From contig SGYR01000002.1 in the NCBI GenBank assembly GCA_004213405.1, positions 2,133 to 66,132 on the forward strand: a DNA stretch of 64,000 bases. Reading direction: 5' to 3'. The notes beneath the pieces were generated by a model. It searched no databases, was not told the origin of the DNA, and worked only from the letters and a program-made list of their open reading frames with translations. The stretch comes from Candidatus Actinomarinales bacterium. GTDB taxonomy: Bacteria > Actinomycetota > Acidimicrobiia > Actinomarinales > Actinomarinaceae. The first letter of the stretch is position 1; each line of letters starts with the position of its first letter. A program made the position numbers and the translations under genes. Below, one piece after another: positions 4,302 through 54,879 of the stretch.

Positions 4302-5342
4302 TTAGAAACAATCTTTAATAAATTTTATAGTTTCAATATCAAGCGGTATTGCGACTGATAGTTCTGTTACATTACAGTTTTTCCAGTCTTCAAGCTTTTC
4401 TTTTATACGTTCTTTAGAGCCAACAAGAGTTAAGTCTTCGAGCAATTCATCAGGAAAAATTGATTCTGCATCTGCTTTTTCACCTTTAAGATACAATTCC
4501 TGAATCTGTGTAGCAATTTCTTCATAGCCGTATTCACACATCAAATTAAAATAAAAGTTCTTATCTTTAGCTCCCATACCGCCTACATATAGGGTGTAAT
4601 TATTTCTAGCAGGAGCTAAATATGCATCTCTTTCAGATTCGTCGCAAACCTTTGCAAATACTGGAGCAGATATTTGAAATTTTTCTTTTTTATTTGGATC
4701 ACCTGATTTTTCAAAACCTTTTTCTAAAAATTGATTAAAAAATTTATCTCCAAGGGTTGGTGAATACATGAAAGGAAGCCATCCGTCTGCAATCTCTGCT
4801 GTAAGTTCAATATTTTTTGGACCAATTGCTGCAAGATAAATTGGAATATCACTTCTTACAGGTTGTTCAATAAGCTTTAATGGTTTTCCTAGACCAGATG
4901 CGTCATCACCTTTGTATGGCAGGTTATAATACTCACCTTCAAATGAAGTTTTGCCATCTCTTTGTAATATGTCTCTAACTATCTGAACATATTCTCTTGT
5001 CTTCTTTAATGGCTTTCCATAAGCAACACCATGCCAGCCCTCAACAACCTGAGGACCAGAAACCCCAATCCCCAATCTAAACCTACCACCAGAGAGTTTA
5101 TCTAAAGTAACGGCTGTCATTGCGGTCATAGCAGGAGACCTACCAGGAATTTGCATGATGCCAGATCCCAGTTTTAATTTATCTGTTAATGCGGCAAAAT
5201 ATGAAAGTGGGGTGACTGCGTCAAAACCATATGCTTCAGCTGTCCATATACAAGATATACCTATTTCATCTAATTCTTTAATTAAAGATTTCTCACTTGA
5301 TATATGTGGACCAAAATACCCAACATTTACACTTACTTCCAT
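4302..5342 (-). CDS. luciferase-like monooxygenase (LLM) family oxidoreductase, probably F420-dependent class
   Basis: TIM-barrel LLM pattern: W.AE.YGFDA..PL, GSGIMQIPGRSPAMTAM...L..LSGGRF.LGIGVSGPQVVEGWHG, IPIYLAAIGPKN, LYVGGMGAKDKNFY. The last motif resembles the F420-dependent Rv3520c/Mer-like subgroup. Confidence 0.68.
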   Translation of the reverse strand: MEVSVNVGYFGPHISSEKSLIKELDEIGISCIWTAEAYGFDAVTPLSYFAALTDKLKLGSGIMQIPGRSPAMTAMTAVTLDKLSGGRFRLGIGVSGPQVVEGWHGVAYGKPLKKTREYVQIVRDILQRDGKTSFEGEYYNLPYKGDDASGLGKPLKLIEQPVRSDIPIYLAAIGPKNIELTAEIADGWLPFMYSPTLGDKFFNQFLEKGFEKSGDPNKKEKFQISAPVFAKVCDESERDAYLAPARNNYTLYVGGMGAKDKNFYFNLMCEYGYEEIATQIQELYLKGEKADAESIFPDELLEDLTLVGSKERIKEKLEDWKNCNVTELSVAIPLDIETIKFIKDCF

Positions 5343-28996: not shown

Positions 28997-29632
28997 TTAT
29001 ATGTCTTTTAAATTATTCTTTTTCCATTCATCTATTTTTTGATGATTTCCGGACAAAAGCACCTCTGGTACTTCCTTATTTTTAAAGATTTCAGGTCTTG
29101 TATAGACAGGATAATCAATTTTATTATCTGTAAAAGTTTCACTTTTTAATGATTCAGGATTACCTAACACATCTGGAATTTTCCTAATCAACGCTTCTAA
29201 CAAATACAAAGCTGGCACTTCTCCCCCAGAAACAACAGATTGACCAATTGATATTTCATAATCAGAATGAATTTCTAAAATTCTTTGATCATAACCCTCG
29301 TATCTACCGCATACCAAATTAATTGACTTGTATTCAAGTAATTCACTTATAAGGTTTTCATTTAATTGTTGTCCTGATGGGGTAAGAAAAATATTAATAT
29401 CTGCCTTGCTGGAAGTTATAGCTTTGTCTAAAGGTTCTGGCATCAAAACCATTCCTGGTCCACCGCCATATGGAGCATCATCAACTTGTTTATAGGTTCC
29501 TATGCCAAAATCTCTAAGGTTTGTTGAATTTATAGCTACTAAATTATTTTTTAATGCTTGATTAATAATCCCGGTATTTTTCCATTCTTCAATTAGATTT
29601 GGAAATAATGTTATTACATTGTAAGAATTCAT
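28997..29632 (-). CDS. trmD: tRNA (guanine37-N1)-methyltransferase
   Basis: ITLFPNL, DDAPYGGGPGMVL, CGRYEGYDQR, SIGQSVVSGGEVPA and LLSGNH. Confidence 0.95.
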   Translation of the reverse strand: MNSYNVITLFPNLIEEWKNTGIINQALKNNLVAINSTNLRDFGIGTYKQVDDAPYGGGPGMVLMPEPLDKAITSSKADINIFLTPSGQQLNENLISELLEYKSINLVCGRYEGYDQRILEIHSDYEISIGQSVVSGGEVPALYLLEALIRKIPDVLGNPESLKSETFTDNKIDYPVYTRPEIFKNKEVPEVLLSGNHQKIDEWKKNNLKDI

Positions 29633-31464
29633 TTTTTTTCTAGAGTATTTTTTGTTTCGCTGAATTTTGTATATAGAGTGTTTCTCAAAATTGGATTTTT
29701 ATTTTCAGACTCAATTATTTGAATAAATTGATCTTCAGTTGTTTCTTGCCCATGATCTGCTCCTGAAGCTCTGCTAATGTTTTCATTGATCAAAGTACCA
29801 CCTAAATCATTAACACCAGCATGAAGGAGTTTGCCTGCTCCATCATGACCCAATTTCACCCAGCTTGCTTGAATGTTGTCTATTGAATTTACAAAGTAAA
29901 TTCGCGCTAATGAATGAATAAGAACTACCTCATCCCAAGTAGGTCCTGGCATACTTTTACCTTGTAAGTAAATAGGAGAACCCATATGTACAAAAGGAAG
30001 GGGTACAACTTCAGTAAATCCATTAGTTTTGCTTTGAACATTTTTAATTAATGAAAAATGATTAACCCAAGAATCTATATCATCAATATGTCCAAACATA
30101 ATTGTTGCTGTAGATTTTATCCCTAAGTTATGAGCTACTTCCATTACATATGCCCATTGTGAAGAAGTTATTTTATCAGGGCAAAGATATTTTCTAACTC
30201 TATCGTCTAATATCTCGGCCGCAGTACCGGGAAGTGTATTTAGTCCAGCTTTTTTTAACAGGCTTAAGTACTCTTCAACACTCAAACCAATAGTCTCTGC
30301 ACCTTGCCAAATTTCTAAAGGAGTGAAACCGTGAATATGCATTTCTGGAACAGAAGCTTTTATATCTTCTACCATTTTTAAATAAAACTCTCCCGTATAG
30401 TCAGGATGAATGCCGCCTTGTAAACACACTTCTGATGCACCCATATCATATGCTTCGACACTTCTTTCAACTACTTCTTGTATGTCAATGGTGTATGGTT
30501 TTTCTTTTAAATTTAAACTATTAGGACCTTTAGAAAATCCACAAAAACCACATTTGTAATAGCATTGATTCGTATAATTAATATTTCTATTCTTTACATA
30601 AGAAACATTATTTCCGTTTTTTAAAAAATTTAACTCATTAGCAACATTTGCAATATCATTTATTTTTTCTCCTGCGGTATTAAACAATACTCTCAGATCA
30701 TCATTATTAATTTGATATCCATCTAATACCCTTTTCAATATTGAGTCAATTTCAGAATGGTTGATTTGACTTTTATTGTTAAAGACAAAATTATTTAAAT
30801 TTGGGATATTTTTCCCACTACCAGGAGACCAACTTGTCTCTTTTCTTCTAAAACCTCTGACATTTCTAGTTTTTAAGAATCTAAAAAATCTTTCTTTATC
30901 AAATTCTTCTCTTGCCTCATCAATAGAAAATACGGGAGAAAGCAAAGTTCGCTCATAGAAATTTAGACCTTCTAGATTTTGAAGTTCTAATATCTGTTCG
31001 GAACTCCAATCCCTGAGGAGTAAATCTGAAACTCCTGCATTAGCAAATTCAATTGCTTCCTCAATTGTTTCAACGTATGTCGATGTTATAAAATTTGTTT
31101 TTGAGTTGATAGATTTAAGGAATTGTAGTTCTGAATTAGTAGAAATTAAAATTGTGTGTGGCTTTAGTCTATCGATAACCTCTAATGCGATTTCAATATT
31201 ATTTTTAAAAATGTAAATCAATCTTTTTGGATGAACAGATTTAAATTCTTTCCAGTTTTCATCAGTAACAATCCATACGTCTGAATTTATGGAGATATCC
31301 TTTGATACTGTTTGAAATTCCTTATTATGTAAATTATCTGTATTTACTGATACATCACTTTTTATTAAGAATGTAGAAGTTCCTTCTTTTTTTCTTGAAT
31401 TTAAATATATTTCGTTGTCGTTATCACATGGTCTGATTCGAAGAAAAGAAATGTTATTGTTCAT
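29629..31464 (-). CDS. cofH: FO (7,8-didemethyl-8-hydroxy-5-deazariboflavin) synthase subunit CofH with an unassigned ~240-aa N-terminal extension
   Basis: The C-terminal ~370 aa are CofH-like: VSYVKNRNINYTNQCYYKCGFCGF (radical-SAM CxxxCxxC), VCLQGGIHPD, HIHGFTP, LPGTAAEIL and NDLGGTLINENISR. I set the start to ATG 31464 (MNNNISF), which overlaps the cofG stop by 11 nt. Residues 1 to about 240 match nothing I recognise. Confidence 0.85.
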   Translation of the reverse strand: MNNNISFLRIRPCDNDNEIYLNSRKKEGTSTFLIKSDVSVNTDNLHNKEFQTVSKDISINSDVWIVTDENWKEFKSVHPKRLIYIFKNNIEIALEVIDRLKPHTILISTNSELQFLKSINSKTNFITSTYVETIEEAIEFANAGVSDLLLRDWSSEQILELQNLEGLNFYERTLLSPVFSIDEAREEFDKERFFRFLKTRNVRGFRRKETSWSPGSGKNIPNLNNFVFNNKSQINHSEIDSILKRVLDGYQINNDDLRVLFNTAGEKINDIANVANELNFLKNGNNVSYVKNRNINYTNQCYYKCGFCGFSKGPNSLNLKEKPYTIDIQEVVERSVEAYDMGASEVCLQGGIHPDYTGEFYLKMVEDIKASVPEMHIHGFTPLEIWQGAETIGLSVEEYLSLLKKAGLNTLPGTAAEILDDRVRKYLCPDKITSSQWAYVMEVAHNLGIKSTATIMFGHIDDIDSWVNHFSLIKNVQSKTNGFTEVVPLPFVHMGSPIYLQGKSMPGPTWDEVVLIHSLARIYFVNSIDNIQASWVKLGHDGAGKLLHAGVNDLGGTLINENISRASGADHGQETTEDQFIQIIESENKNPILRNTLYTKFSETKNTLEKK

Positions 31465-32575
31465 TGTGTTCTTTTGGATATCCATCTGTATCAATAATAT
31501 TATTAACTTTTTCAAAAATTTTACTATTTAACCATTCTTTTTTTATAAATTCGGGATAAACGGGTAACCTCTTTTTTAGAACTTGACCTGTACTTGAAAT
31601 ATCTAATTTTAATTTATTTATATTTGGCCATAAATGATCTGGATTTACCCAATCAATAGTTAATGGAGATATTCCACCTAGATCATTAATGCCACTATTT
31701 AAAAATATTGTTATATCGGGTGAAAGATTTGGTGGAACTTGAAGAGATATATGTGAAGGGGCGTAAATTCTAGTTGTGGCAATTATTCTTAAAAATAAAT
31801 CATTTGTTATTTCAGAACTATTCTTCATTAATGTATTTTTCTTTGCTCTGAAATTTTGTAATATTACTTCCTGAATTGCAGAGTTCTTTTTTACATAATC
31901 AATTAAATTTGATATATCATTTACAATTTCTTCTTTTGTTGGGGTTAAACCAAGAAGTAATCCAGTTGTGACTGGATATTTTTCTTCTAATGCATTGTTA
32001 AGGGTATCCAACCTTAAATCAATATATTTAGTATCTGTTTTGTAATGAGCTTTTCCCTTATCGTATATATTTTTTGAAAATGACTCAATCATAACCCCAC
32101 CAGATGGTGAGTATTTTCTTAACTCCTTAATCTCTTGTCTGCTCATTAAACCAGGGTTGGCGTGAGGAAAAAGATTAAATTTATCATTTACAACCTTCAT
32201 TGAACTAATTAAATAATCATGAGTTGAGGAATGGCCTAATTCTTTAAGTTGGGTTAAAGCAAAATCCCATTTGAGCTCTGGCTTATCTCCTAAAGTAAAC
32301 AAAGCTTCATAGCAACCAGCTTCATCACCAGCTTCTGCTATCGAGAGAACCTCTTCTTGATTTAAATAAGTTCCACCCTCTTTTGGAGATTTTACAAATG
32401 TACAATATCCACAATTATCTCTACACATTGTTGTTAGTGGAATAAAAACTTTAGGACTATATGTTATTTTGTCGCCAAAGTAATTTATTTTCTTCTCAAA
32501 AGCATTAGATAACAGTTCTTCAGTTGAAACTGCTCCAAAGATGGAATCATTAATTTTTCTTGTTAAATCTGTCAT
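31454..32575 (-). CDS. cofG: FO synthase subunit CofG
   Basis: VFIPLTTMCRDNCGYCTF (radical-SAM cluster motif of CofG), HANPGLM, VTTGLLLGL and INDLGGISPLT. Confidence 0.9.
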   Translation of the reverse strand: MTDLTRKINDSIFGAVSTEELLSNAFEKKINYFGDKITYSPKVFIPLTTMCRDNCGYCTFVKSPKEGGTYLNQEEVLSIAEAGDEAGCYEALFTLGDKPELKWDFALTQLKELGHSSTHDYLISSMKVVNDKFNLFPHANPGLMSRQEIKELRKYSPSGGVMIESFSKNIYDKGKAHYKTDTKYIDLRLDTLNNALEEKYPVTTGLLLGLTPTKEEIVNDISNLIDYVKKNSAIQEVILQNFRAKKNTLMKNSSEITNDLFLRIIATTRIYAPSHISLQVPPNLSPDITIFLNSGINDLGGISPLTIDWVNPDHLWPNINKLKLDISSTGQVLKKRLPVYPEFIKKEWLNSKIFEKVNNIIDTDGYPKEHNEQ

Positions 32576-32644: not shown

Positions 32645-33649
32645 ATGGCAAATGTATCTTTAGTTGGCTTTGGAAGAATAGGTAGAGATCTATTTAGGCA
32701 AACATTGGGTGATACTGATATAAACATTGTATCTATTTCTGACACCGCTGATAAAGCTAACTTAATTTATTTATTAAAGTACGACTCAATTTACGGAAAG
32801 CTAGATGCAGAAATTGAGGAATCTGAAACTGGTATTGTTGTTAATGGTAAAGAAATCATATTTAATTCTTGGAAAAATGGTGACGAAGCAAATTGGGATG
32901 AACTAAACACTGACATCGTAGTTCTTGCAACTGGTAGACCGAAGACTAAAGAAGAAGTTGATAAACATTTATCAAAAGGTTGTAAAAAAGTTATCGTTGC
33001 CTCAACTCCCGAAAATTTCGAAGATATACAAATATATGTGCCTGGTGCAAACGATGAAGAGATAGATTTAAACTCAAGAGTATTTTCCTTAGGTTCCAAT
33101 ACAGCAAATGCAGTTGCACCCATTCTTAAAGCTTTAGATAGTAAAGTTGGGGTTGAAAGAGCATTTCTTACGACTGTTCATGGATATTCAAATTCAAACC
33201 GTTTAGCAGATGTAGCAGGTGAAGGTTTTAGACTTAACAGAGCAGCTGGTGAAAATATTATCCCAAGTATTACTAAGTCTTCTGAGGTAATATCAAATGT
33301 TCTTCCATTCATAGAAGGAAAGATAGCTTCATCGTCTATGACAGTACCAATTCCTGACGGAAGTACAGTTGATTTGACAATTGATATCAAAAACAAAACA
33401 AGTATTGAAGATATCAATAAAATAATTGAGGATGCTTCCAATTCTGATTTAAAAAACATTATCGGATTAACATATGATCCAATTGTTTCTTCTGATGTTG
33501 TGAGAAGTACACTCTCTGGTTTAGTGGACGGGTTAGCAACAATGGGTATTAATAATAAAAAAATTAAAATCATTATTTGGTTTGATAATGGTTGGGGTTA
33601 TGCGGCTAGAATTGTCGATACAGTGAAAAAGCTCAGTCAGGTGTTATAA
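32645..33649 (+). CDS. glyceraldehyde-3-phosphate dehydrogenase paralogue lacking the catalytic cysteine (probable pseudo-enzyme or neofunctionalised)
   Basis: Full-length GAPDH fold (VGFGRIGR NAD motif, TTVHGYS, W.DN.WGY). The active-site box reads SLGSNTANAVAP where GAPDH has SNASCTTNCLAP, so Cys is replaced by Asn (codon AAT, verified in the DNA). The STGAAKA phosphate loop reads SITKSSEV. Confidence 0.8.
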   Translation: MANVSLVGFGRIGRDLFRQTLGDTDINIVSISDTADKANLIYLLKYDSIYGKLDAEIEESETGIVVNGKEIIFNSWKNGDEANWDELNTDIVVLATGRPKTKEEVDKHLSKGCKKVIVASTPENFEDIQIYVPGANDEEIDLNSRVFSLGSNTANAVAPILKALDSKVGVERAFLTTVHGYSNSNRLADVAGEGFRLNRAAGENIIPSITKSSEVISNVLPFIEGKIASSSMTVPIPDGSTVDLTIDIKNKTSIEDINKIIEDASNSDLKNIIGLTYDPIVSSDVVRSTLSGLVDGLATMGINNKKIKIIIWFDNGWGYAARIVDTVKKLSQVL

Positions 33650-34654
33650 ATGGGTAATGTAGCAATAAATGGTTTTGGAAGAATTGGACGTTCTATATTA
33701 AGAATAATTATTGAAAATAATTCTGATATAAATGTTGTTGCAATTAATGACCTCGGTAATTATGAAAACCTTGCATATCTTTTGAAACATGATTCTGTAA
33801 TGGGCATTTTGGATAGTGATGTACAAGTTGATGGAGACAATCTTTTAGTCGGAGATAGAGTTATTAAACTTACCTCAATAAAAGATCCTGCTGACCTTCC
33901 ATGGAGCGAATTAGATGTGGATGTTGTAATTGAATCAACTGGAATTTTTAGAGATAATGAATCCCTTAATAAACACATATCTGCTGGTGCTAAAAAAGTA
34001 TTACTTACTGTACCACCCAAAGATGAAATTGACGCAACAATAGTTTTAGGTGTAAATGACAATGACTTGAAGCCAGATGATAAAATTGTCTCTAATGCAT
34101 CTTGTACTACAAACTGTTTAGCACCGATAGCTAAAGTACTGGATGATAATTTTGGAATCAAATCTGGTCTTATGACCACAGTGCATGCATACACTAATGA
34201 TCAAGCACTAGCTGAAACAACACATAGTGACTTTAGGAGAGGCAGAAGTGCTACCCAAAATATAATTCCTACTTCAACAGGCGCAGCTAAAGCAGTTGGT
34301 ATGGTTTTACCTGAATTAAACGGTAAATTAGATGGCATGGCAATGAGAGTTCCTGTTCCAGATGGAAGTGTAGTTGATTTAGTAGTGGAATTAGAAAAAT
34401 CTGTTTCTATAGATGATGTAAATAAAGCTGTTAAAGAAGCTGCAGATAACGAACTAAAAGGTATTTTAGAGTACTCTGAGGTTCCTCTTGTATCTACCGA
34501 TATATTAAATAATCCACATTCAAGTATTTATGATGCATCTTCTACACAATTAATAGACGAAAATCACGTCAAAGTTGTATGTTGGTACGACAACGAATGG
34601 GGTTACTCAAATAGAGTTGTAGATCTTATTGGTAATCTTTTAAATAATGGATAA
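33650..34654 (+). CDS. gap: glyceraldehyde-3-phosphate dehydrogenase (canonical type I)
   Basis: NGFGRIGR, SNASCTTNCLAP, TTVHAYTNDQ, RRGRSATQNIIPTSTGAAKAV and WYDNEWGYS are all intact. Confidence 0.95.
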   Translation: MGNVAINGFGRIGRSILRIIIENNSDINVVAINDLGNYENLAYLLKHDSVMGILDSDVQVDGDNLLVGDRVIKLTSIKDPADLPWSELDVDVVIESTGIFRDNESLNKHISAGAKKVLLTVPPKDEIDATIVLGVNDNDLKPDDKIVSNASCTTNCLAPIAKVLDDNFGIKSGLMTTVHAYTNDQALAETTHSDFRRGRSATQNIIPTSTGAAKAVGMVLPELNGKLDGMAMRVPVPDGSVVDLVVELEKSVSIDDVNKAVKEAADNELKGILEYSEVPLVSTDILNNPHSSIYDASSTQLIDENHVKVVCWYDNEWGYSNRVVDLIGNLLNNG

Positions 34655-49953: not shown

Positions 49954-52076
49954 GTAGTACCATCTGCTTGAAAATAATTTGGAAATAATAATTTTGCTTC
50001 TTCAAATACTTTATTCGAAGAATTTAAACTATTGATATCATTATAAATTTCTTTGGATTGAATAAGTAAACCATAATCAAAACGTAAATCAGCAATTTTT
50101 AGATCAGACCTGCCTGATTGGCTTTTACCAGTTACCTTTCCTTCACCGCGGATTTCTAAATCTATCTCTGATAATTTAAATCCATCACTCATTGTTGATA
50201 TAGCCTCTAATCTTTTCACACCTTCTTCACTGATAGTGCTGAGAGATTTTTTATTCGTAATGTGAAAAATACACTCTGATTGTTTTTCACCTCTACCTAC
50301 TCTTCCTCTGAGCTGGTGCAATTGATTAAGACCAAATCTTTCTGCGCTTTCAATAATCATTAGAGAGGCATTTGGAATGTCTATACCCACCTCTATTACT
50401 ACAGTAGAGACAAGTATGTCTATGGAGCCATCCTGCATTGATCGCATTATATTTTCTTTTTCCTCATAAGACATCTTTCCATGCAAAAGAACAACCTTAT
50501 AATCCGTAAATTTTTTAGAATATTCCAAAAAAACTTTTTCTGCTGCCTGTATATCAGAAGACTCACTCTCTTCTATGTAGGGACAAACTACAAATATTTG
50601 CGAATCAGCATCTAAATGTTTAGAACACTTTTCAAAAACTTTTTCATTGTCTTTTTTTAAACCACTATATAAATGTGAAACAATTGGCTTTCTGCCTGGA
50701 GGTAATTCATTAATTGAAGATATCTCTAAGTCACCATATATAGATAAAGCAGTAGTTCTCGGTATTGGAGTTGCAGTCATAACAAGTTGGTCTGGAGTTA
50801 TTTCTGAATCTGAAATTAATTTTTTTCTTTGATCAACACCAAATCTCTGTTGCTCGTCAATAATTACGAGACCTAAATTACTAAAGAATACTTTGTCTTG
50901 AATTAAGGCATGAGTACCTATATATAAGCCAGGCTTACCATCAGATATATTATTCATTACTTCGCTTCTATCTTTGACAGAGGAAGTAAGAAAATTAATC
51001 TCTACATCTGAATTTTTTAAAAATGCATTTAATGAATTTAAATGTTGTTCAGCCAATACTTCCGTTGGAGCCATTAGTGCCACTTGGTAACCTGAATTTA
51101 TAACAGCATATATAGAAATTGCAGCTATAACTGTCTTTCCTGAGCCAACATCACCTTGAAGAAGTCTTTTCATGGGATAATCATTTTTCAAATCTTCTAA
51201 AATCTCTTTATAGGCTTTTGTTTGAGATTTTGTGAGTTTAAATGGTAAGTCTGCAACAAAAGTGTCTATTAATGAATTTTCAAAAAAATATTTTGGTCCT
51301 TTGTTTTTATTTTTAAACTCAGATTTTAAATTTTCAAATATAGAACGTAAATAAATAAATTCATCAAGAGCAAGTCTTTCTCTTGCTTTTTGGAATTCTT
51401 CAATGGTTTTAGGAAAATGAATTGATTTAAAACTTTCAGTTCTAGAAAAAATTGAATTTTTATCTACTACCTCACTAGTAAGCATATCTTCAATTCCAGG
51501 TTCAAACTCTTCTTTAGGTGTATCAATGATTGACAATGCGTCTTTTATTGCTTTTCTTATTACACCACTAGATACACCATCAACTTTTGGATATATAGGA
51601 ATTAAAGATCCCGTCTCGCTTAATTCATCTATATCAGCAAATTTTTCAATTGTGGGATTTTTAAATTCTATTGATCCAGTTTTTTTAATTTCAGGCTTTC
51701 CAGAAAGAGCAACATCTTCACCCTCTTTAAATCTGGATTCTATATATTGAGGTCCAAACCATTTTGCTTTTACCAGGCCGGTGCTGTCTTTTATTGTAAG
51801 CGTCGTTATTCTTAATCTTGATTTAGTTGTAAAGACTGAAACATTACTGATCGTACCAATCATTGTTACTTCTTTTTCAATATCTGATTGATCAATTTGA
51901 TTTATTGTTTTTATTTTTGATCTATCAATGTGCTTTTTTGGATAAAATCTAATTAAATCGGTAATAGAAGATAGACTACTCTTTTTAAGATTTGAATATC
52001 TTTTCTCACCAAATCCTTTTAAAGAATCTAACTTTATATTATTTAAGTAACTTAAACTTCTTTCAACCACAATCAA
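49950..52076 (-). CDS. recG: ATP-dependent DNA helicase RecG
   Basis: Wedge/OB N-terminus, LPFKLTKSQ, RLLQGDVGSGKT, DEQQRFGV, ATPIPRT and LHQLRGRVGRG. Confidence 0.94.
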   Translation of the reverse strand: MIVVERSLSYLNNIKLDSLKGFGEKRYSNLKKSSLSSITDLIRFYPKKHIDRSKIKTINQIDQSDIEKEVTMIGTISNVSVFTTKSRLRITTLTIKDSTGLVKAKWFGPQYIESRFKEGEDVALSGKPEIKKTGSIEFKNPTIEKFADIDELSETGSLIPIYPKVDGVSSGVIRKAIKDALSIIDTPKEEFEPGIEDMLTSEVVDKNSIFSRTESFKSIHFPKTIEEFQKARERLALDEFIYLRSIFENLKSEFKNKNKGPKYFFENSLIDTFVADLPFKLTKSQTKAYKEILEDLKNDYPMKRLLQGDVGSGKTVIAAISIYAVINSGYQVALMAPTEVLAEQHLNSLNAFLKNSDVEINFLTSSVKDRSEVMNNISDGKPGLYIGTHALIQDKVFFSNLGLVIIDEQQRFGVDQRKKLISDSEITPDQLVMTATPIPRTTALSIYGDLEISSINELPPGRKPIVSHLYSGLKKDNEKVFEKCSKHLDADSQIFVVCPYIEESESSDIQAAEKVFLEYSKKFTDYKVVLLHGKMSYEEKENIMRSMQDGSIDILVSTVVIEVGIDIPNASLMIIESAERFGLNQLHQLRGRVGRGEKQSECIFHITNKKSLSTISEEGVKRLEAISTMSDGFKLSEIDLEIRGEGKVTGKSQSGRSDLKIADLRFDYGLLIQSKEIYNDINSLNSSNKVFEEAKLLFPNYFQADGTT

Positions 52077-52158
52077 ACATTACCTAAAAAGTTTTAAAAT
52101 GAAAGTACCTACAAATTAATAAATTAGTTATAGTTATATTTGTAATTAAAGGAAATAC

Positions 52159-52347
52159 ATGGCGAAAAAATGTGAAATTTGTGGCAAGGGACCTTGGTTT
52201 GGAAAGCAAGTAAGTTTCTCTCATAAAAGGTCTAGTAAAAAGTGGTCTGCGAATATACAAACAGTTAGAGTTGCTGATAATACAAATACAAAAAAGGTAA
52301 AAGTATGTACTTCTTGCTTAAAATCAGGGAAAGTAGTTAAAGTTTAA
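52159..52347 (+). CDS. rpmB: 50S ribosomal protein L28
   Basis: MAKKCEICGKGPWFGKQVSFSHKRSSKKWSANIQ is the L28 pattern. 62 aa. Confidence 0.93.
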   Translation: MAKKCEICGKGPWFGKQVSFSHKRSSKKWSANIQTVRVADNTNTKKVKVCTSCLKSGKVVKV

Positions 52348-52562
52348 TGTCACAGGGTGTCGTAAAGTCTTACGATCCTAATACAGGTAATGGAATAATA
52401 ATTCTTGATACTGATAAATCTGAAGTTTTTCTTGCACCAGGTTCTTTAAAAGGCTCTATTTTTAGAACTTTAAGACAAGGACAAAGAGTAAATTTTGAAA
52501 TAGAAGACAGGGAAGGCATCCCAACTGTTCAAAATATACGAATTGGACAAGACAAGTACTAA
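52347..52562 (+). CDS. cold-shock-domain-like small OB-fold protein with degenerate RNP motifs
   Basis: QGVVKSYDPNTGNGIIILDTDKSEVFLAPGSL....FRTLRQGQRVNFEI aligns with CspA-type QGTVKWFN.EKGFGFI....DVFVHYS.I...FR.L.EGQ.V.FE. The aromatic RNP1/RNP2 residues are replaced. Confidence 0.55.
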   Translation: MSQGVVKSYDPNTGNGIIILDTDKSEVFLAPGSLKGSIFRTLRQGQRVNFEIEDREGIPTVQNIRIGQDKY

Positions 52563-52571
52563 ATAGACTTA

Positions 52572-53771
52572 ATGTCCTTAATAAATCTTGAATTAGAAAA
52601 TGAACAAATAATCAATGATTATTTTAAAGATCTTTGTTGTGACAATTACACAATTCCTTTTTTATTAGGTGGGCAGTCAAATGCAGATAATGCATTAAAT
52701 CAACTAAACATTAATAAATACGCTACAAAAAGAAACAACGTATACCCAAAAGATTCAAGAGGTTCATCTTATTTATCCCCCTATATACGACATGGTTTAC
52801 TTAGTCTCTCTGATGTATGGAAAGCTGTTGAGAAATTTGAATACAAAGATAAAACTAAATTCCAAGATGAATTGCTTTGGCAAGAGTTTTCAAGACATTT
52901 ATATGCAATAGTTGGTAAAAAATCAAGAAATTATCTAAATTACAAAATAGAAAATCCTGATTCGAATGCAGATATTTATAAAAATATGAATTGTGTATCG
53001 ACTATTGAAGAAGAGCTTGAAAAAACGGGTTATATGGTTAACCAAACAAGAATGTGGTATGCATCTCATAATTCTTTAAGGGTAGGTAACGACTGGAATC
53101 AATATGAAGACTACATGTTTCAACATTTATTAGATGGGTCTCGATTTGCAAACAGATTAGGATGGCATTGGGTCATGGGATCACAAACAGGAAAGCCATA
53201 TGGATTTTCCAAATTCCAAGTTGAAAAAAGGGCACCACAGTTATGTAATAATTGTGAATTAAAATATGACTGCCCTATTCAAGAATGGCCACAAACAAAT
53301 ATTTCTGAAAAATTAAGTAATGATTTTAAAGTAGATGAAGAAAAAGTTTTTGGTCCAAAAAACATAAGAGAAAATAACAGAAATAAACCATCCTTTGTGT
53401 GGATTACAGGTGAATCTATTGGAGACAATGATCCAGCAATGAGTCATTATCACGAAATACCAGTAATTTTTATATTTGATATAAAGTTGCTAAGCAAATT
53501 GCAATTATCAACAAAGAGAATTAATTTTTTACTTGATTGCCTTAAAGAAATAAATAACAAAAGGGAGCTGCAGGTACATTTAACCAATCCAGATGATTAT
53601 TTACGAAATAAATATTTTGCATCAACATTTGCACCAGTGCCAAAATACAAAAAAATTACAGAAAGAAATATACCATCTATAGAATTCCCGGCATTACGAC
53701 TTGCAGATCCCATTAATTTCTACCCTACAAGTTTCAGTTCATGGAGAAAAAAGATAAAGTTAAATATATGA
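52572..53771 (+). CDS. cryptochrome/photolyase-family flavoprotein with apparent permuted domain order (FAD domain N-terminal, alpha/beta-like domain C-terminal) and a 4-Cys set
   Basis: Residues ~30-235 carry FAD-domain boxes: GGQSNA...L, SSYLSPYIRHGLLS, ELLWQEFSRHLY, TGYMVNQTRMWYAS, LLDGSRFANRLGWHWVMGS and TGKPYGF. Cys141 plus C225-x2-C228-x5-C234 form a 4-Cys set. Residues ~273-330 (PSFVWITGESIGDNDPAM...IPVIFIFD...TKRINFLLDCLKEIN) resemble the photolyase N-terminal alpha/beta domain start (lvWfr.DLRl.DNpAL...v..vfi.dp...r..Fl...L..L). Confidence 0.68.
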   Translation: MSLINLELENEQIINDYFKDLCCDNYTIPFLLGGQSNADNALNQLNINKYATKRNNVYPKDSRGSSYLSPYIRHGLLSLSDVWKAVEKFEYKDKTKFQDELLWQEFSRHLYAIVGKKSRNYLNYKIENPDSNADIYKNMNCVSTIEEELEKTGYMVNQTRMWYASHNSLRVGNDWNQYEDYMFQHLLDGSRFANRLGWHWVMGSQTGKPYGFSKFQVEKRAPQLCNNCELKYDCPIQEWPQTNISEKLSNDFKVDEEKVFGPKNIRENNRNKPSFVWITGESIGDNDPAMSHYHEIPVIFIFDIKLLSKLQLSTKRINFLLDCLKEINNKRELQVHLTNPDDYLRNKYFASTFAPVPKYKKITERNIPSIEFPALRLADPINFYPTSFSSWRKKIKLNI

Positions 53772-54190
53772 GAAGATATATAATTTTTACATTCTTGTTT
53801 TTTCACAATTATATTTATATCTATTCAAATGGCAGAATAGGAAAATTTCTACAAGGAAGGCCGTGTTTAATTCTTTTCTCAACTGGTGCCAAGACTAATT
53901 TGTTAAGAAAAAATGTTCTTGTGTTCATGAAAGAAGGTGATGAGATTTGTCTTGTAGCATCTAAAGGTGGAAGCCCTACTAATCCAGGCTGGTATCATAA
54001 TTTAAAAGCTAATCCTAAATGTGAAATTCAAATTGGAAGAAAGAAATACACTGCAGTTGCAAAAGAAGTATTTGATGAAGAGCGTGAAGACTGGTGGTCA
54101 AAAATGGATTACATGAATAATGGTGGATATTCTAATTACCAACAAAGAACAAAACGTAAAATACCTGTATTAATTTTAAATTTGTCTTAG
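53768..54190 (+). CDS. deazaflavin (F420H2)-dependent nitroreductase/quinone reductase family protein (DDN/FDOR-A type)
   Basis: LILFSTGAKTNLLRKNVLVFMKEGDEICLVASKGGSPTNPGWYHNLKANPKCEIQIG.......A.EV..EERE.WW is the PF04075-type pattern (G.kSG..R...L.....dg..vvASkGG....P.WyhNL.AnP.v.vq.g). ATG 53768 overlaps the upstream TGA (ATGA). The N-terminus is hydrophobic. Confidence 0.75.
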   Translation: MRRYIIFTFLFFHNYIYIYSNGRIGKFLQGRPCLILFSTGAKTNLLRKNVLVFMKEGDEICLVASKGGSPTNPGWYHNLKANPKCEIQIGRKKYTAVAKEVFDEEREDWWSKMDYMNNGGYSNYQQRTKRKIPVLILNLS

Positions 54191-54243
54191 TCACTTTTTG
54201 CGCCTAAGTCAGTTTTGTAATTTATATTGAATTTCATCAATGT

Positions 54244-54879
54244 TTAAAGGCTATTAAAAACTGTTTCTATGATATCTATAGATAAATTATCAACGATTAA
54301 GTCAGCTTTATTTAATTCGTCTTTTGAAAATATACCTCTATCAATTGCAACTACAAAAGAACCCGATGCCTTTCCAGAAGAAATGCCAGGAGGACTGTCT
54401 TCAATAATTATATTTTTAGTAGTTTGAAGTATACTGATCGCTTTATTATATATATCTGGATATGGTTTATTTCTTTCAACTTGATCACCACCAATAACAT
54501 ATGAGAAATAATTAAAAATGTTTGCTTTTATTAATTTATTTTTTAATAACTCATAAGGGCTTGCTGAGACACATGCCGACGTCCATCCCCTGTTGTTTGT
54601 CTCCTCGAGTAATATTTTTGCATCTTGATACATTAGTTTTTCGTTCAACGTCACTTCTATAATTTTTCCAAGAGATGCCATAGTTTTCTCAAAATTTTCT
54701 AAATCTACATTTTTTGCATAAAAGCTGTGAACTAATCTATCGTCAATACCCACCCATTGTCTAGTTTCCTCTTTAGATATCTCAAGTCCAAAATTACTTA
54801 GATGTTCTTTCCATGCTAAACCATATGATGTTTCGGTATCCATTAAAGTGCCATCGCAGTCCCAATAAATACCGTTCAT
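54244..54879 (-). CDS. HAD-superfamily hydrolase (beta-phosphoglucomutase-like subfamily IA)
   Basis: Motif I YWDCDGTLMDTE (DxDxT), motif II SAS, a motif III Lys region and motif IV EDSPPGISSG. Confidence 0.8.
   Translation of the reverse strand: MNGIYWDCDGTLMDTETSYGLAWKEHLSNFGLEISKEETRQWVGIDDRLVHSFYAKNVDLENFEKTMASLGKIIEVTLNEKLMYQDAKILLEETNNRGWTSACVSASPYELLKNKLIKANIFNYFSYVIGGDQVERNKPYPDIYNKAISILQTTKNIIIEDSPPGISSGKASGSFVVAIDRGIFSKDELNKADLIVDNLSIDIIETVFNSL

Follow-up and report, generated by a model that had tools for sequence, protein, structure and literature searches.

What kind of photolyase carries its flavin-binding domain in front, and what is the domain that follows it? The question is raised by spl, a gene at 52572..53771 (+ strand) in a 64,000-nucleotide stretch of Candidatus Actinomarinales DNA (contig SGYR01000002.1 of assembly GCA_004213405.1; this whole stretch is called the window). 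The gene is one uninterrupted open reading frame (ORF) with an ATG start. It encodes a short photolyase-like protein of 399 amino acids and ends in a stop codon (53769..53771) that shares bases with the start codon (ATG) of the gene that follows. GC content around spl is ~30%, and the source genome is the streamlined, ~1 Mb genome of a marine planktonic bacterium. The initial annotation read the protein as a photolyase of swapped domain order with an iron-sulphur ligand set, and knew of no described family with this architecture. On the latter point it was mistaken, since the class was published in 2020–2021: as NewPHL by Emmerich et al. (2020; PMC7736829), and as short photolyase-like (SPL) proteins by Xu et al. 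(2021; PMC8476157).

The Actinomarina protein is an uncharacterised member of this SPL/NewPHL class, of which the topology and the Fe-S subgroup had already been described. Very probably, it is an Fe-S photolyase for cyclobutane pyrimidine dimers (CPDs) of the actinobacterial (Ac) subgroup. This reading is based on homology, domain order, fold prediction, conserved residues and the cysteine set, while cofactors and repair are taken from relatives. Emmerich et al. described NewPHL as a subfamily with an inverted topology, in which the catalytic domain is followed by a Z-domain, and discussed a possible origin by domain swapping. Two NewPHLs repaired CPDs, and this repair was confined to single-stranded DNA. 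Xu et al. reported four conserved cysteines in the cyanobacterial (C) and Ac subgroups of SPL that are lacking in subgroup A. Their protein from Rhodococcus fascians, RfSPL, holds flavin adenine dinucleotide (FAD), iron and acid-labile sulfide. In UV-treated oligo(dT)16, its repair extended to CPDs and not to 6-4 photoproducts. Searches of the PDB with phmmer and Foldseek found no solved NewPHL or SPL structure.

Catalytic domain and active site

Pfam finds a single family in the full SPL sequence, PF03441, which represents the photolyase domain that binds FAD (residues 141–208, E 2.9e-08, passing the cut-off). The top solved relatives of SPL in a phmmer search against the PDB were class I CPD photolyases, including 1tez (E 1.3e-11), of which chain residues 231–396 align to SPL residues 54–205. 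Because photolyase residues 231–396 map to this early part of SPL, the catalytic domain stands first, as the initial annotation had proposed. No alpha/beta domain precedes it, and the ORF begins 9 nt past the stop codon of the upstream gene csd. Together with the Foldseek results and residue conservation, these matches place the all-alpha, FAD-binding catalytic domain at residues ~28–240 (52653..53291, + strand). The motifs on which the swapped order had been proposed were all found in place. They comprise GGQSNA (residues 33–38), SYLSPYIRHGLLS (66–78), ELLWQEF (100–106), TGYMVNQTRMWYAS (152–165) and LLDGSRFANRLGWHWVMGS (186–204) in the catalytic domain, and FVWITGESIGDNDPAM (275–290), PVIFIFD (297–303) and RINFLLDCLKEIN (316–328) in the C-terminal part.

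The full-length NCBIfam models for 8-HDF-type, class I and Cry-DASH photolyases matched SPL by their C-terminal halves only, and all scored far below their cut-offs (TIGR03556, 55.0 vs 884.6 bits; NF007955, 44.2 vs 506 bits; TIGR02765 for Cry-DASH, 35.1 vs 317 bits). With scores this low, and confined to the catalytic half, membership of the class I CPD (TIGR03556/NF007955) or Cry-DASH (TIGR02765) families was rejected. Structure prediction gave a similar picture. We built an alignment, A1, of 40 sequences (the query and 39 homologues, with identities down to 41%), and used it as input for a full-length AlphaFold2 (AF2) model, which reached a pLDDT of 93.0 and a pTM of 0.92. In a Foldseek search against the PDB, this model matched photolyases and cryptochromes exclusively, and its catalytic half alone aligned (207–258 columns); with canonical photolyases, the alignments spanned 207–248 columns.

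The predicted CPD-site residues of SPL are E100, W103, N157, M161 and W200, and the predicted FAD contacts are R160, D188, A193, N194 and G197. All of them are invariant in A1 (40/40), except A193, which is kept in at least 90% of the sequences. Xu et al. listed E274, W277, N341, R344, M345, W359, D372, A377, N378, G381, W382 and W384 of EcCPDI as conserved in SPLs, and every substrate and FAD residue on this list has its counterpart in the Actinomarina protein, invariant or nearly so. Judged by these residues, the active site is of the CPD type and not of the (6-4) type. The predicted tryptophan dyad, W175 and W198, is likewise invariant in A1. Between W103 and W162 the sequence contains no tryptophan, and hence the distal member of the canonical triad is absent. 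This agrees with the earlier reports that SPL/NewPHL proteins retain only the proximal and middle tryptophans of the photoreduction triad (Emmerich et al., 2020; Xu et al., 2021).

Four conserved cysteines

Behind the comparison with FeS-BCP/CryPro photolyases were four cysteines, all of which are indeed where the initial annotation had put them. The first putative [4Fe-4S] ligand is Cys141 (codon 52992..52994, + strand), equivalent to Cys155 of RfSPL. Three further putative cluster ligands form the motif C225-x2-C228-x5-C234, followed by a proline (53244..53273, + strand), and are equivalent to Cys239, Cys242 and Cys248 of RfSPL. The four are invariant in A1 (40/40). In a more distant set of 24 diverse cluster representatives, with 27–46% identity to the query, 19 retain the complete set; of the remaining five, four have none of the cysteines, and one has the equivalent of Cys225 alone. 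The relatives without the cysteines share just ~27–30% identity with the query. Retention or loss of the four residues together is the pattern expected of a metal-ligand set, and the alignments thus bear out the proposal of a conserved ligand set.

The spacing of the cysteines (84/3/6) is the same as in RfSPL. Moreover, eleven RfSPL residue numbers given by Xu et al. (Cys155, Cys239, Cys242, Cys248, Arg174, Trp189, Asp202, Ala207, Asn208, Gly211 and Trp212) equal the Actinomarina SPL number plus 14. Two Mycobacteriaceae orthologues, one from Mycolicibacterium (L080) and one from a Mycobacteriaceae metagenome-assembled genome (MAG; L059), have their cysteines at exactly 155, 239, 242 and 248; the query is ~43% identical to the Mycobacteriaceae orthologues. 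Rhodococcus belongs to the same order as the Mycobacteriaceae in the NCBI taxonomy, although it was not represented among the 80 top-ranking loci when genomes were scanned with the Mycolicibacterium orthologue. Orthology with RfSPL is therefore very well supported by these sequence comparisons, but indirectly.

Might SPL instead belong to the FeS-BCP/CryPro (6-4) photolyases and have shed the N-terminal domain? The four cysteines resemble Cys350, Cys438, Cys441 and Cys454 of PhrB, and PhrB ranked first by TMq (0.45–0.46) among the solved structures that Foldseek listed for the full model, and stood out for the length of its alignments (245–248 columns). Yet the gap between the third and fourth cysteine is 5 residues in SPL and 12 in PhrB, and the active-site residues are the CPD set. 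Sequence matches were to class I, 8-hydroxy-5-deazaflavin (8-HDF)-type and DASH proteins, and PhrB was absent from the phmmer results even at E <= 10. RfSPL, furthermore, left 6-4 photoproducts unrepaired (Xu et al., 2021). We consider such an origin highly improbable. Membership of FeS-BCP/CryPro itself was rejected, given the lack of an N-terminal alpha/beta domain, the CPD-type residues, the x5 instead of x12 spacing and the missing PhrB match. Hence, the FeS-BCP/CryPro comparison holds for the cluster ligands, but not for the active site.

Five distant SPL-like proteins (P0128, P0134, P0138, P0122 and P0124) possess all four cysteines and the Z-domain, with the CPD-site residues replaced (E100 by N or K; N157 by H, D, A or G; M161 by R, Q, A or L; W200 by L or A). 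Going by these replacements, they may form a cryptochrome-like branch of the Fe-S SPLs that has given up repair.

The C-terminal Z-domain

Between the two domains lies a linker of variable sequence and length (residues ~241–272; 53292..53387, + strand), where the gaps in A1 fall; in the AF2 model, it contains one short strand and one short helix. The Z-domain follows (residues ~273–399; 53388..53768, + strand). The sole alpha/beta domain known in photolyases is the N-terminal one.

Emmerich et al. made two statements on this point. A figure legend calls the first 125 residues of the Z-domain strikingly similar to the antenna-binding domain, whereas the text describes the predicted order of its secondary-structure elements as not matching a Rossmann fold. 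In our AF2 model, residues 275–372 are predicted to run beta-alpha-beta-alpha-beta-alpha-beta-alpha-beta, followed by a terminal helix, which gives a five-stranded, Rossmann-like domain. The C-terminal 138 residues modelled alone reached a pLDDT of 91.7. The top five PDB matches of the Z-domain model in Foldseek were all MmCPDII, the class II CPD photolyase of Methanosarcina mazei (E from 8.8e-4, probability 0.99–1.00, TMq 0.49–0.58, 129–140 columns). Below these came alpha/beta enzymes of various kinds, among them phosphopantetheine adenylyltransferases, universal stress proteins and S-adenosylmethionine-dependent methyltransferases.

Sequence comparison reached significance only with profiles. 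In single-sequence searches, the likeness of the C-terminal part to the start of a photolyase alpha/beta domain remained below threshold. PF00875 was the only Pfam family that recurred in the C-terminal domains (11 of 32 members, best E 0.015). Its matches are collinear, relating Z-domain positions 12–84 to profile positions 2–83, and score 12.8–15.7 bits, always below the 26.6-bit cut-off. Likewise, the PDB matches of a Z-domain profile made from actinobacterial members were all sub-threshold. Profile A3, a Z-domain profile drawn from all subgroups, was also searched against the PDB sequences; its best match covered residues 26–91 of CraCRY, the animal-like cryptochrome of Chlamydomonas (E 1.9e-4), and another cryptochrome followed at 9.2e-4. 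Altogether, 28 of its 30 PDB matches were N-terminal domains of photolyases or cryptochromes, at residues ~26–120. Residues 273–399 are conserved and collinear across the SPL subgroups, and W391 is retained in 23 of the 24 diverse representatives. Emmerich et al. reported one conserved tryptophan and a 'GFF' motif for the Z-domain; the literal GFF motif was absent from the query and from all 24 representatives.

The fold matches from Foldseek and the profile statistics of A3 together support the swapped domain order. They provide clear evidence, from sequence profiles and predicted structure, that the Z-domain is truly homologous to the alpha/beta (antenna) domain at the N-terminus of canonical photolyases, in line with the initial annotation.

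An alternative explanation would be that the C-terminal 130–160 residues are an unrelated tail, or that the ORF is a fusion produced by assembly or annotation. Pfam and NCBIfam are indeed blank over residues 240–399 of the single sequence, and the remark of Emmerich et al. on a secondary-structure order unlike a Rossmann fold would fit an unrelated tail. However, a constant architecture of 395–412 amino acids recurs in thousands of proteins from single-amplified genomes (SAGs), MAGs and isolate genomes, the two-domain model has the high pTM given above, and both Foldseek and the profiles match photolyase alpha/beta domains. The full-length ORF is present in nine independent Ca. Actinomarina SAGs and MAGs (eight copies 92–97% identical, the ninth 78%) and in hundreds of other genomes. 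An ORF intact across independent SAGs, MAGs and isolates excludes an assembly fusion. This explanation is thus extremely improbable; it was rejected on the evidence of the nine Ca. Actinomarina genomes, the GTDB genomes described below, Foldseek and profile A3.

Family size and distribution

The query matched 3745 protein clusters (90% identity) at E <= 1e-3, the best full-length clusters having 394–419 amino acids and 91–100% query coverage. When representatives at 50% identity were scanned exhaustively with HMMER, 1449 clusters passed the same threshold. At least 583 GTDB species-representative genomes carry relatives of the Actinomarina SPL. Nearly all of the best 80 belong to the Actinomycetota (Actinomarinales, Acidimicrobiia, Nanopelagicales, Solirubrobacteraceae, Mycobacteriaceae, Gordonia, Pseudonocardia and others). 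The domain order foreseen by the initial annotation is conserved among orthologues in SAGs, MAGs and isolates.

Within Ca. Actinomarinales, spl is single-copy and syntenic, and it was present in all loci examined, one copy (L036) ending at a contig end. Its retention in every Ca. Actinomarinales locus, despite genome streamlining, argues for a selected function and against a remnant.

NewPHL/SPL proteins co-occur with canonical photolyases (Emmerich et al., 2020; Xu et al., 2021), and a NewPHL and a DASH protein hardly ever occur in one genome (Emmerich et al., 2020). The presence of another photolyase beside the rhodopsin gene in Ca. Actinomarinales (PMC7771536) fits this co-occurrence. In the flanks of 93 related loci, our search for canonical photolyases gave one weak extra match only (L062).

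Repair function and proposed mechanism

In the mechanism that we propose for the Actinomarina SPL, the N-terminal helical domain would bind FAD, and blue or near-UV light absorbed with the cofactor in its FADH− form would drive the splitting of CPDs at a class-I-type site formed by E100, W103, N157, M161 and W200. Photoreduction of FAD would proceed via a chain of two tryptophans, W198 to W175, instead of a triad. At the C-terminal edge of the catalytic domain, Cys141, Cys225, Cys228 and Cys234 would ligate a [4Fe-4S] cluster, for which RfSPL and, less closely, PhrB are the models; the role of this cluster may be structural, and possibly redox. The Z-domain presumably packs against the catalytic domain and closes off the FAD pocket, thereby replacing the canonical N-terminal domain. 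For NewPHL, such sealing was predicted from covariation (Emmerich et al., 2020). The probable target would be CPDs in single-stranded DNA, with the enzyme working beside the canonical photolyase that Ca. Actinomarinales encode next to the rhodopsin gene. By analogy with the two NewPHLs, we consider single-strand specificity of the Actinomarina SPL somewhat more plausible than its absence.

Several points weigh against this reading. The Actinomarina SPL is known from sequence and models, and its orthology with RfSPL derives from the concordance in residue numbering and from the Mycobacteriaceae orthologues. The single-strand specificity was demonstrated for two alphaproteobacterial NewPHLs that lack the cluster (Emmerich et al., 2020), and the repair reported for RfSPL concerns oligo(dT)16. 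RfSPL was weakly active, with a cluster that did not remain stable in air and was seen as [3Fe-4S] (Xu et al., 2021). As to the Z-domain, the Foldseek matches carry no target residue ranges. Furthermore, the query lacks the literal GFF motif given by Emmerich et al.; the residues that precede the conserved tryptophan of the Z-domain are S387-F388-S389 in the query and RFS or FFS in other members.

Possibly, the protein is not a repair enzyme at all, but a photoreceptor or regulator akin to bacterial cryptochromes, with the Z-domain or the Fe-S cluster serving in signalling. Xu et al. speculated on a signalling role for the C-terminal extensions of SPL, and RfSPL repairs weakly, its knockout having barely altered photoreactivation. 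The five distant four-cysteine relatives with replaced CPD-site residues suggest that non-repair offshoots exist. Against this, the query and its 39 homologues retain E100, W103, N157, R160, M161, D188, N194 and W200, in the case of the query in a streamlined ~1 Mb genome; CPD repair was demonstrated for two NewPHLs and for RfSPL; and no regulator gene was linked to spl in the loci examined. A sensory role for the Actinomarina protein therefore seems quite improbable, and CPD repair remains our preferred reading.

Gene neighbourhood and deazaflavin genes

The gene spl is the third member of a tight, co-oriented array on the + strand. The first gene, rpmB (52159..52347), encodes ribosomal protein L28 in its Zn-ribbon (CxxC...CxxC) form (PF00830, E 2.6e-18), and overlaps by one base with csd (52347..52562), which encodes a divergent cold-shock-domain protein of 71 amino acids (PF00313, E 2.8e-09) and ends 9 nt upstream of spl. 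The fourth gene, ddn (53768..54190), is a Ddn-like gene of the deazaflavin (F420H2)-dependent nitroreductase family (PF04075, E 6.4e-39; TIGR00026, 97 bits vs a cut-off of 46). Its ATG at 53768 overlaps the spl stop codon (ATGA), and an alternative ATG lies upstream at 53741. A scan of 51900..54400 for promoters and terminators yielded no more than shuffled sequence did.

The rpmB-csd-phr-ddn array noted in the initial annotation is thus real, and so are the FO synthase genes that it had mentioned: CofH (29629..31515, − strand) and CofG (31454..32575, − strand) both have family matches in the window. A further family match is an F420-dependent LLM oxidoreductase (4302..5342). These genes agree with the F420 pathway published for Ca. 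Actinomarinales (PMC7771536). The CofG and CofH ORFs overlap by 62 nt. Read from its first TTG, the CofH ORF begins with a stretch of ~245 amino acids without a family match, and the CofH model starts at about residue 250.

Nearly all loci of Ca. Actinomarinales, with SPL identities as low as 55%, share the gene order recG | rpmB-csd-spl-ddn | HAD-ddl; the exceptions are L023, which lacks the upstream genes, and L014 and L036, which end at contig ends. In 55 other actinobacterial loci and three long contigs, in contrast, spl had none of these neighbours. We therefore rejected rpmB, csd and ddn as general functional partners of spl. The array is limited to Ca. Actinomarinales, and represents order-specific lineage synteny in a compact genome.

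The deazaflavin genes raise the question of an antenna. In the study of Emmerich et al., FAD was the only chromophore of NewPHL, and two NewPHLs did not bind 8-HDF despite co-expression of FbiC; that negative result covers two alphaproteobacterial proteins without the cluster, and the authors noted that other orthologues might carry an antenna. Our results offer no support for FO as the antenna of the Actinomarina SPL. It is conceivable, yet unlikely, that in Actinomycetota that produce FO and F420 the Z-domain of Fe-S SPLs binds FO (8-HDF), and/or that the translationally coupled Ddn-like reductase maintains either FAD or the Fe-S cluster in the reduced state in darkness. In that case, csd-spl-ddn of Ca. 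Actinomarinales would constitute a photorepair module dedicated to single-stranded nucleic acid.

Some further observations concern the neighbouring genes. The csd gene adjoins spl throughout Ca. Actinomarinales. Its product has GNGIII and VFLAP as RNP1-like and RNP2-like motifs and passes the cut-off of the Pfam CSD model, with scores far below the respective cut-offs of all NCBIfam Csp models. At the rpmB position, two isoforms of L28 share one syntenic slot in Ca. Actinomarinales (52159..52347 in the window; 5540..5776 in L003; ~2590..2778 in L028). A Zn-ribbon L28 of 62 amino acids (CxxC...CxxC; 90–97% identical) is encoded in the window, in L002 and in the distant genera L028, L030 and L032–L034. 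An isoform of 78 amino acids with a single cysteine and ~38% identity is encoded in L003–L008, whose SPL is 92–93% identical, and in L009 (78%). Judging from these sequences, the exchange looks like replacement of zinc-dependent by zinc-independent L28, or the reverse, through recombination.

Outside Ca. Actinomarinales, a different gene adjoins the SPL gene in many Actinomycetota. It encodes a fusion protein of ~120 amino acids, DUF2256 (PF10013, a Zn-ribbon) joined to DUF3253 (PF11625), and lies on the same strand as the SPL gene, directly upstream of it except in Euzebya. Its carriers include Nanopelagicales, Micrococcales, Phycicoccus, Cellulomonas and others. It was present in 17 of the 55 loci L039–L093 and in 34 of the 80 loci L094–L173 (for example L091, 2604..2960, with SPL from 3001). 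The window lacks this gene and has csd in its position. Among the papers searched, none connected DUF2256 with photolyase. Elsewhere in the window, two glyceraldehyde-3-phosphate dehydrogenase paralogues of 334 amino acids each stand in tandem (32645..33649 and 33650..34654, + strand), within a highly streamlined genome.

Implications

These findings assign an SPL/NewPHL Fe-S photolyase to a bacterium that ranks among the smallest free-living cells in sunlit ocean waters. New in this study are the statistical and fold evidence on the Z-domain, which refines the statement of Emmerich et al. that it does not fit a Rossmann fold, the retention of spl across Ca. Actinomarinales, and its order-specific operon with a deazaflavin-dependent reductase. 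The homology of the Z-domain also bears on the origin of the class, for which an ancestral one-domain photolyase and a domain swap or circular permutation can be considered. On this evidence, either a common two-domain ancestry or more than one fusion of the same pair of modules is favoured.

Comparison with known systems

The closest characterised system is RfSPL of subgroup Ac (Xu et al., 2021). It is similar in length (406 vs 399 amino acids), likewise begins with the FAD domain and continues with a C-terminal extension, and shares the identical spacing of the four cysteines, the actinobacterial origin and the CPD-type active site. The Actinomarina SPL differs in being known from the sequence of a low-GC (~31%), ~1 Mb marine genome. 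Also, what Xu et al. treated as an unmodelled 'extension' is identified here as an alpha/beta domain of the photolyase type.

The NewPHLs of Dinoroseobacter shibae (DsNewPHL) and Methylobacterium mesophilicum (MmNewPHL), studied by Emmerich et al., also have the catalytic domain first and a Z-domain of ~125–150 amino acids second. They share the tryptophan dyad, the CPD site and the conserved tryptophan near the C-terminus, and the spacing N151-W169-W192-W194 in DsNewPHL equals that of N157-W175-W198-W200 in the Actinomarina SPL. Unlike the latter, they belong to SPL subgroup A, without the four cysteines and without an Fe-S cluster.

Class I or 8-HDF-type CPD photolyases, such as PhrA of Synechococcus elongatus (1TEZ/1QNF), have the substrate and FAD residues in common with SPL. 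Their domain order is the reverse, however, and SPL has a tryptophan dyad instead of a triad, the Fe-S cysteine set, and neither the long inter-domain linker nor the phosphate-binding loop. With the FeS-BCP/CryPro proteins (PhrB, 4DJA; CryB), SPL shares the arrangement of four cysteine ligands for a [4Fe-4S] cluster at the equivalent place of the catalytic domain. Those proteins, in contrast, have a canonical N-terminal alpha/beta domain with a 6,7-dimethyl-8-ribityllumazine (DMRL) antenna and a (6-4) active site, and C-x12-C between their last two ligands compared to C-x5-C in SPL. Finally, Cry-DASH resembles SPL in its presumed part as a second photolyase, acting on CPDs in single-stranded DNA, but it has the canonical domain order and a methenyltetrahydrofolate (MTHF) antenna.

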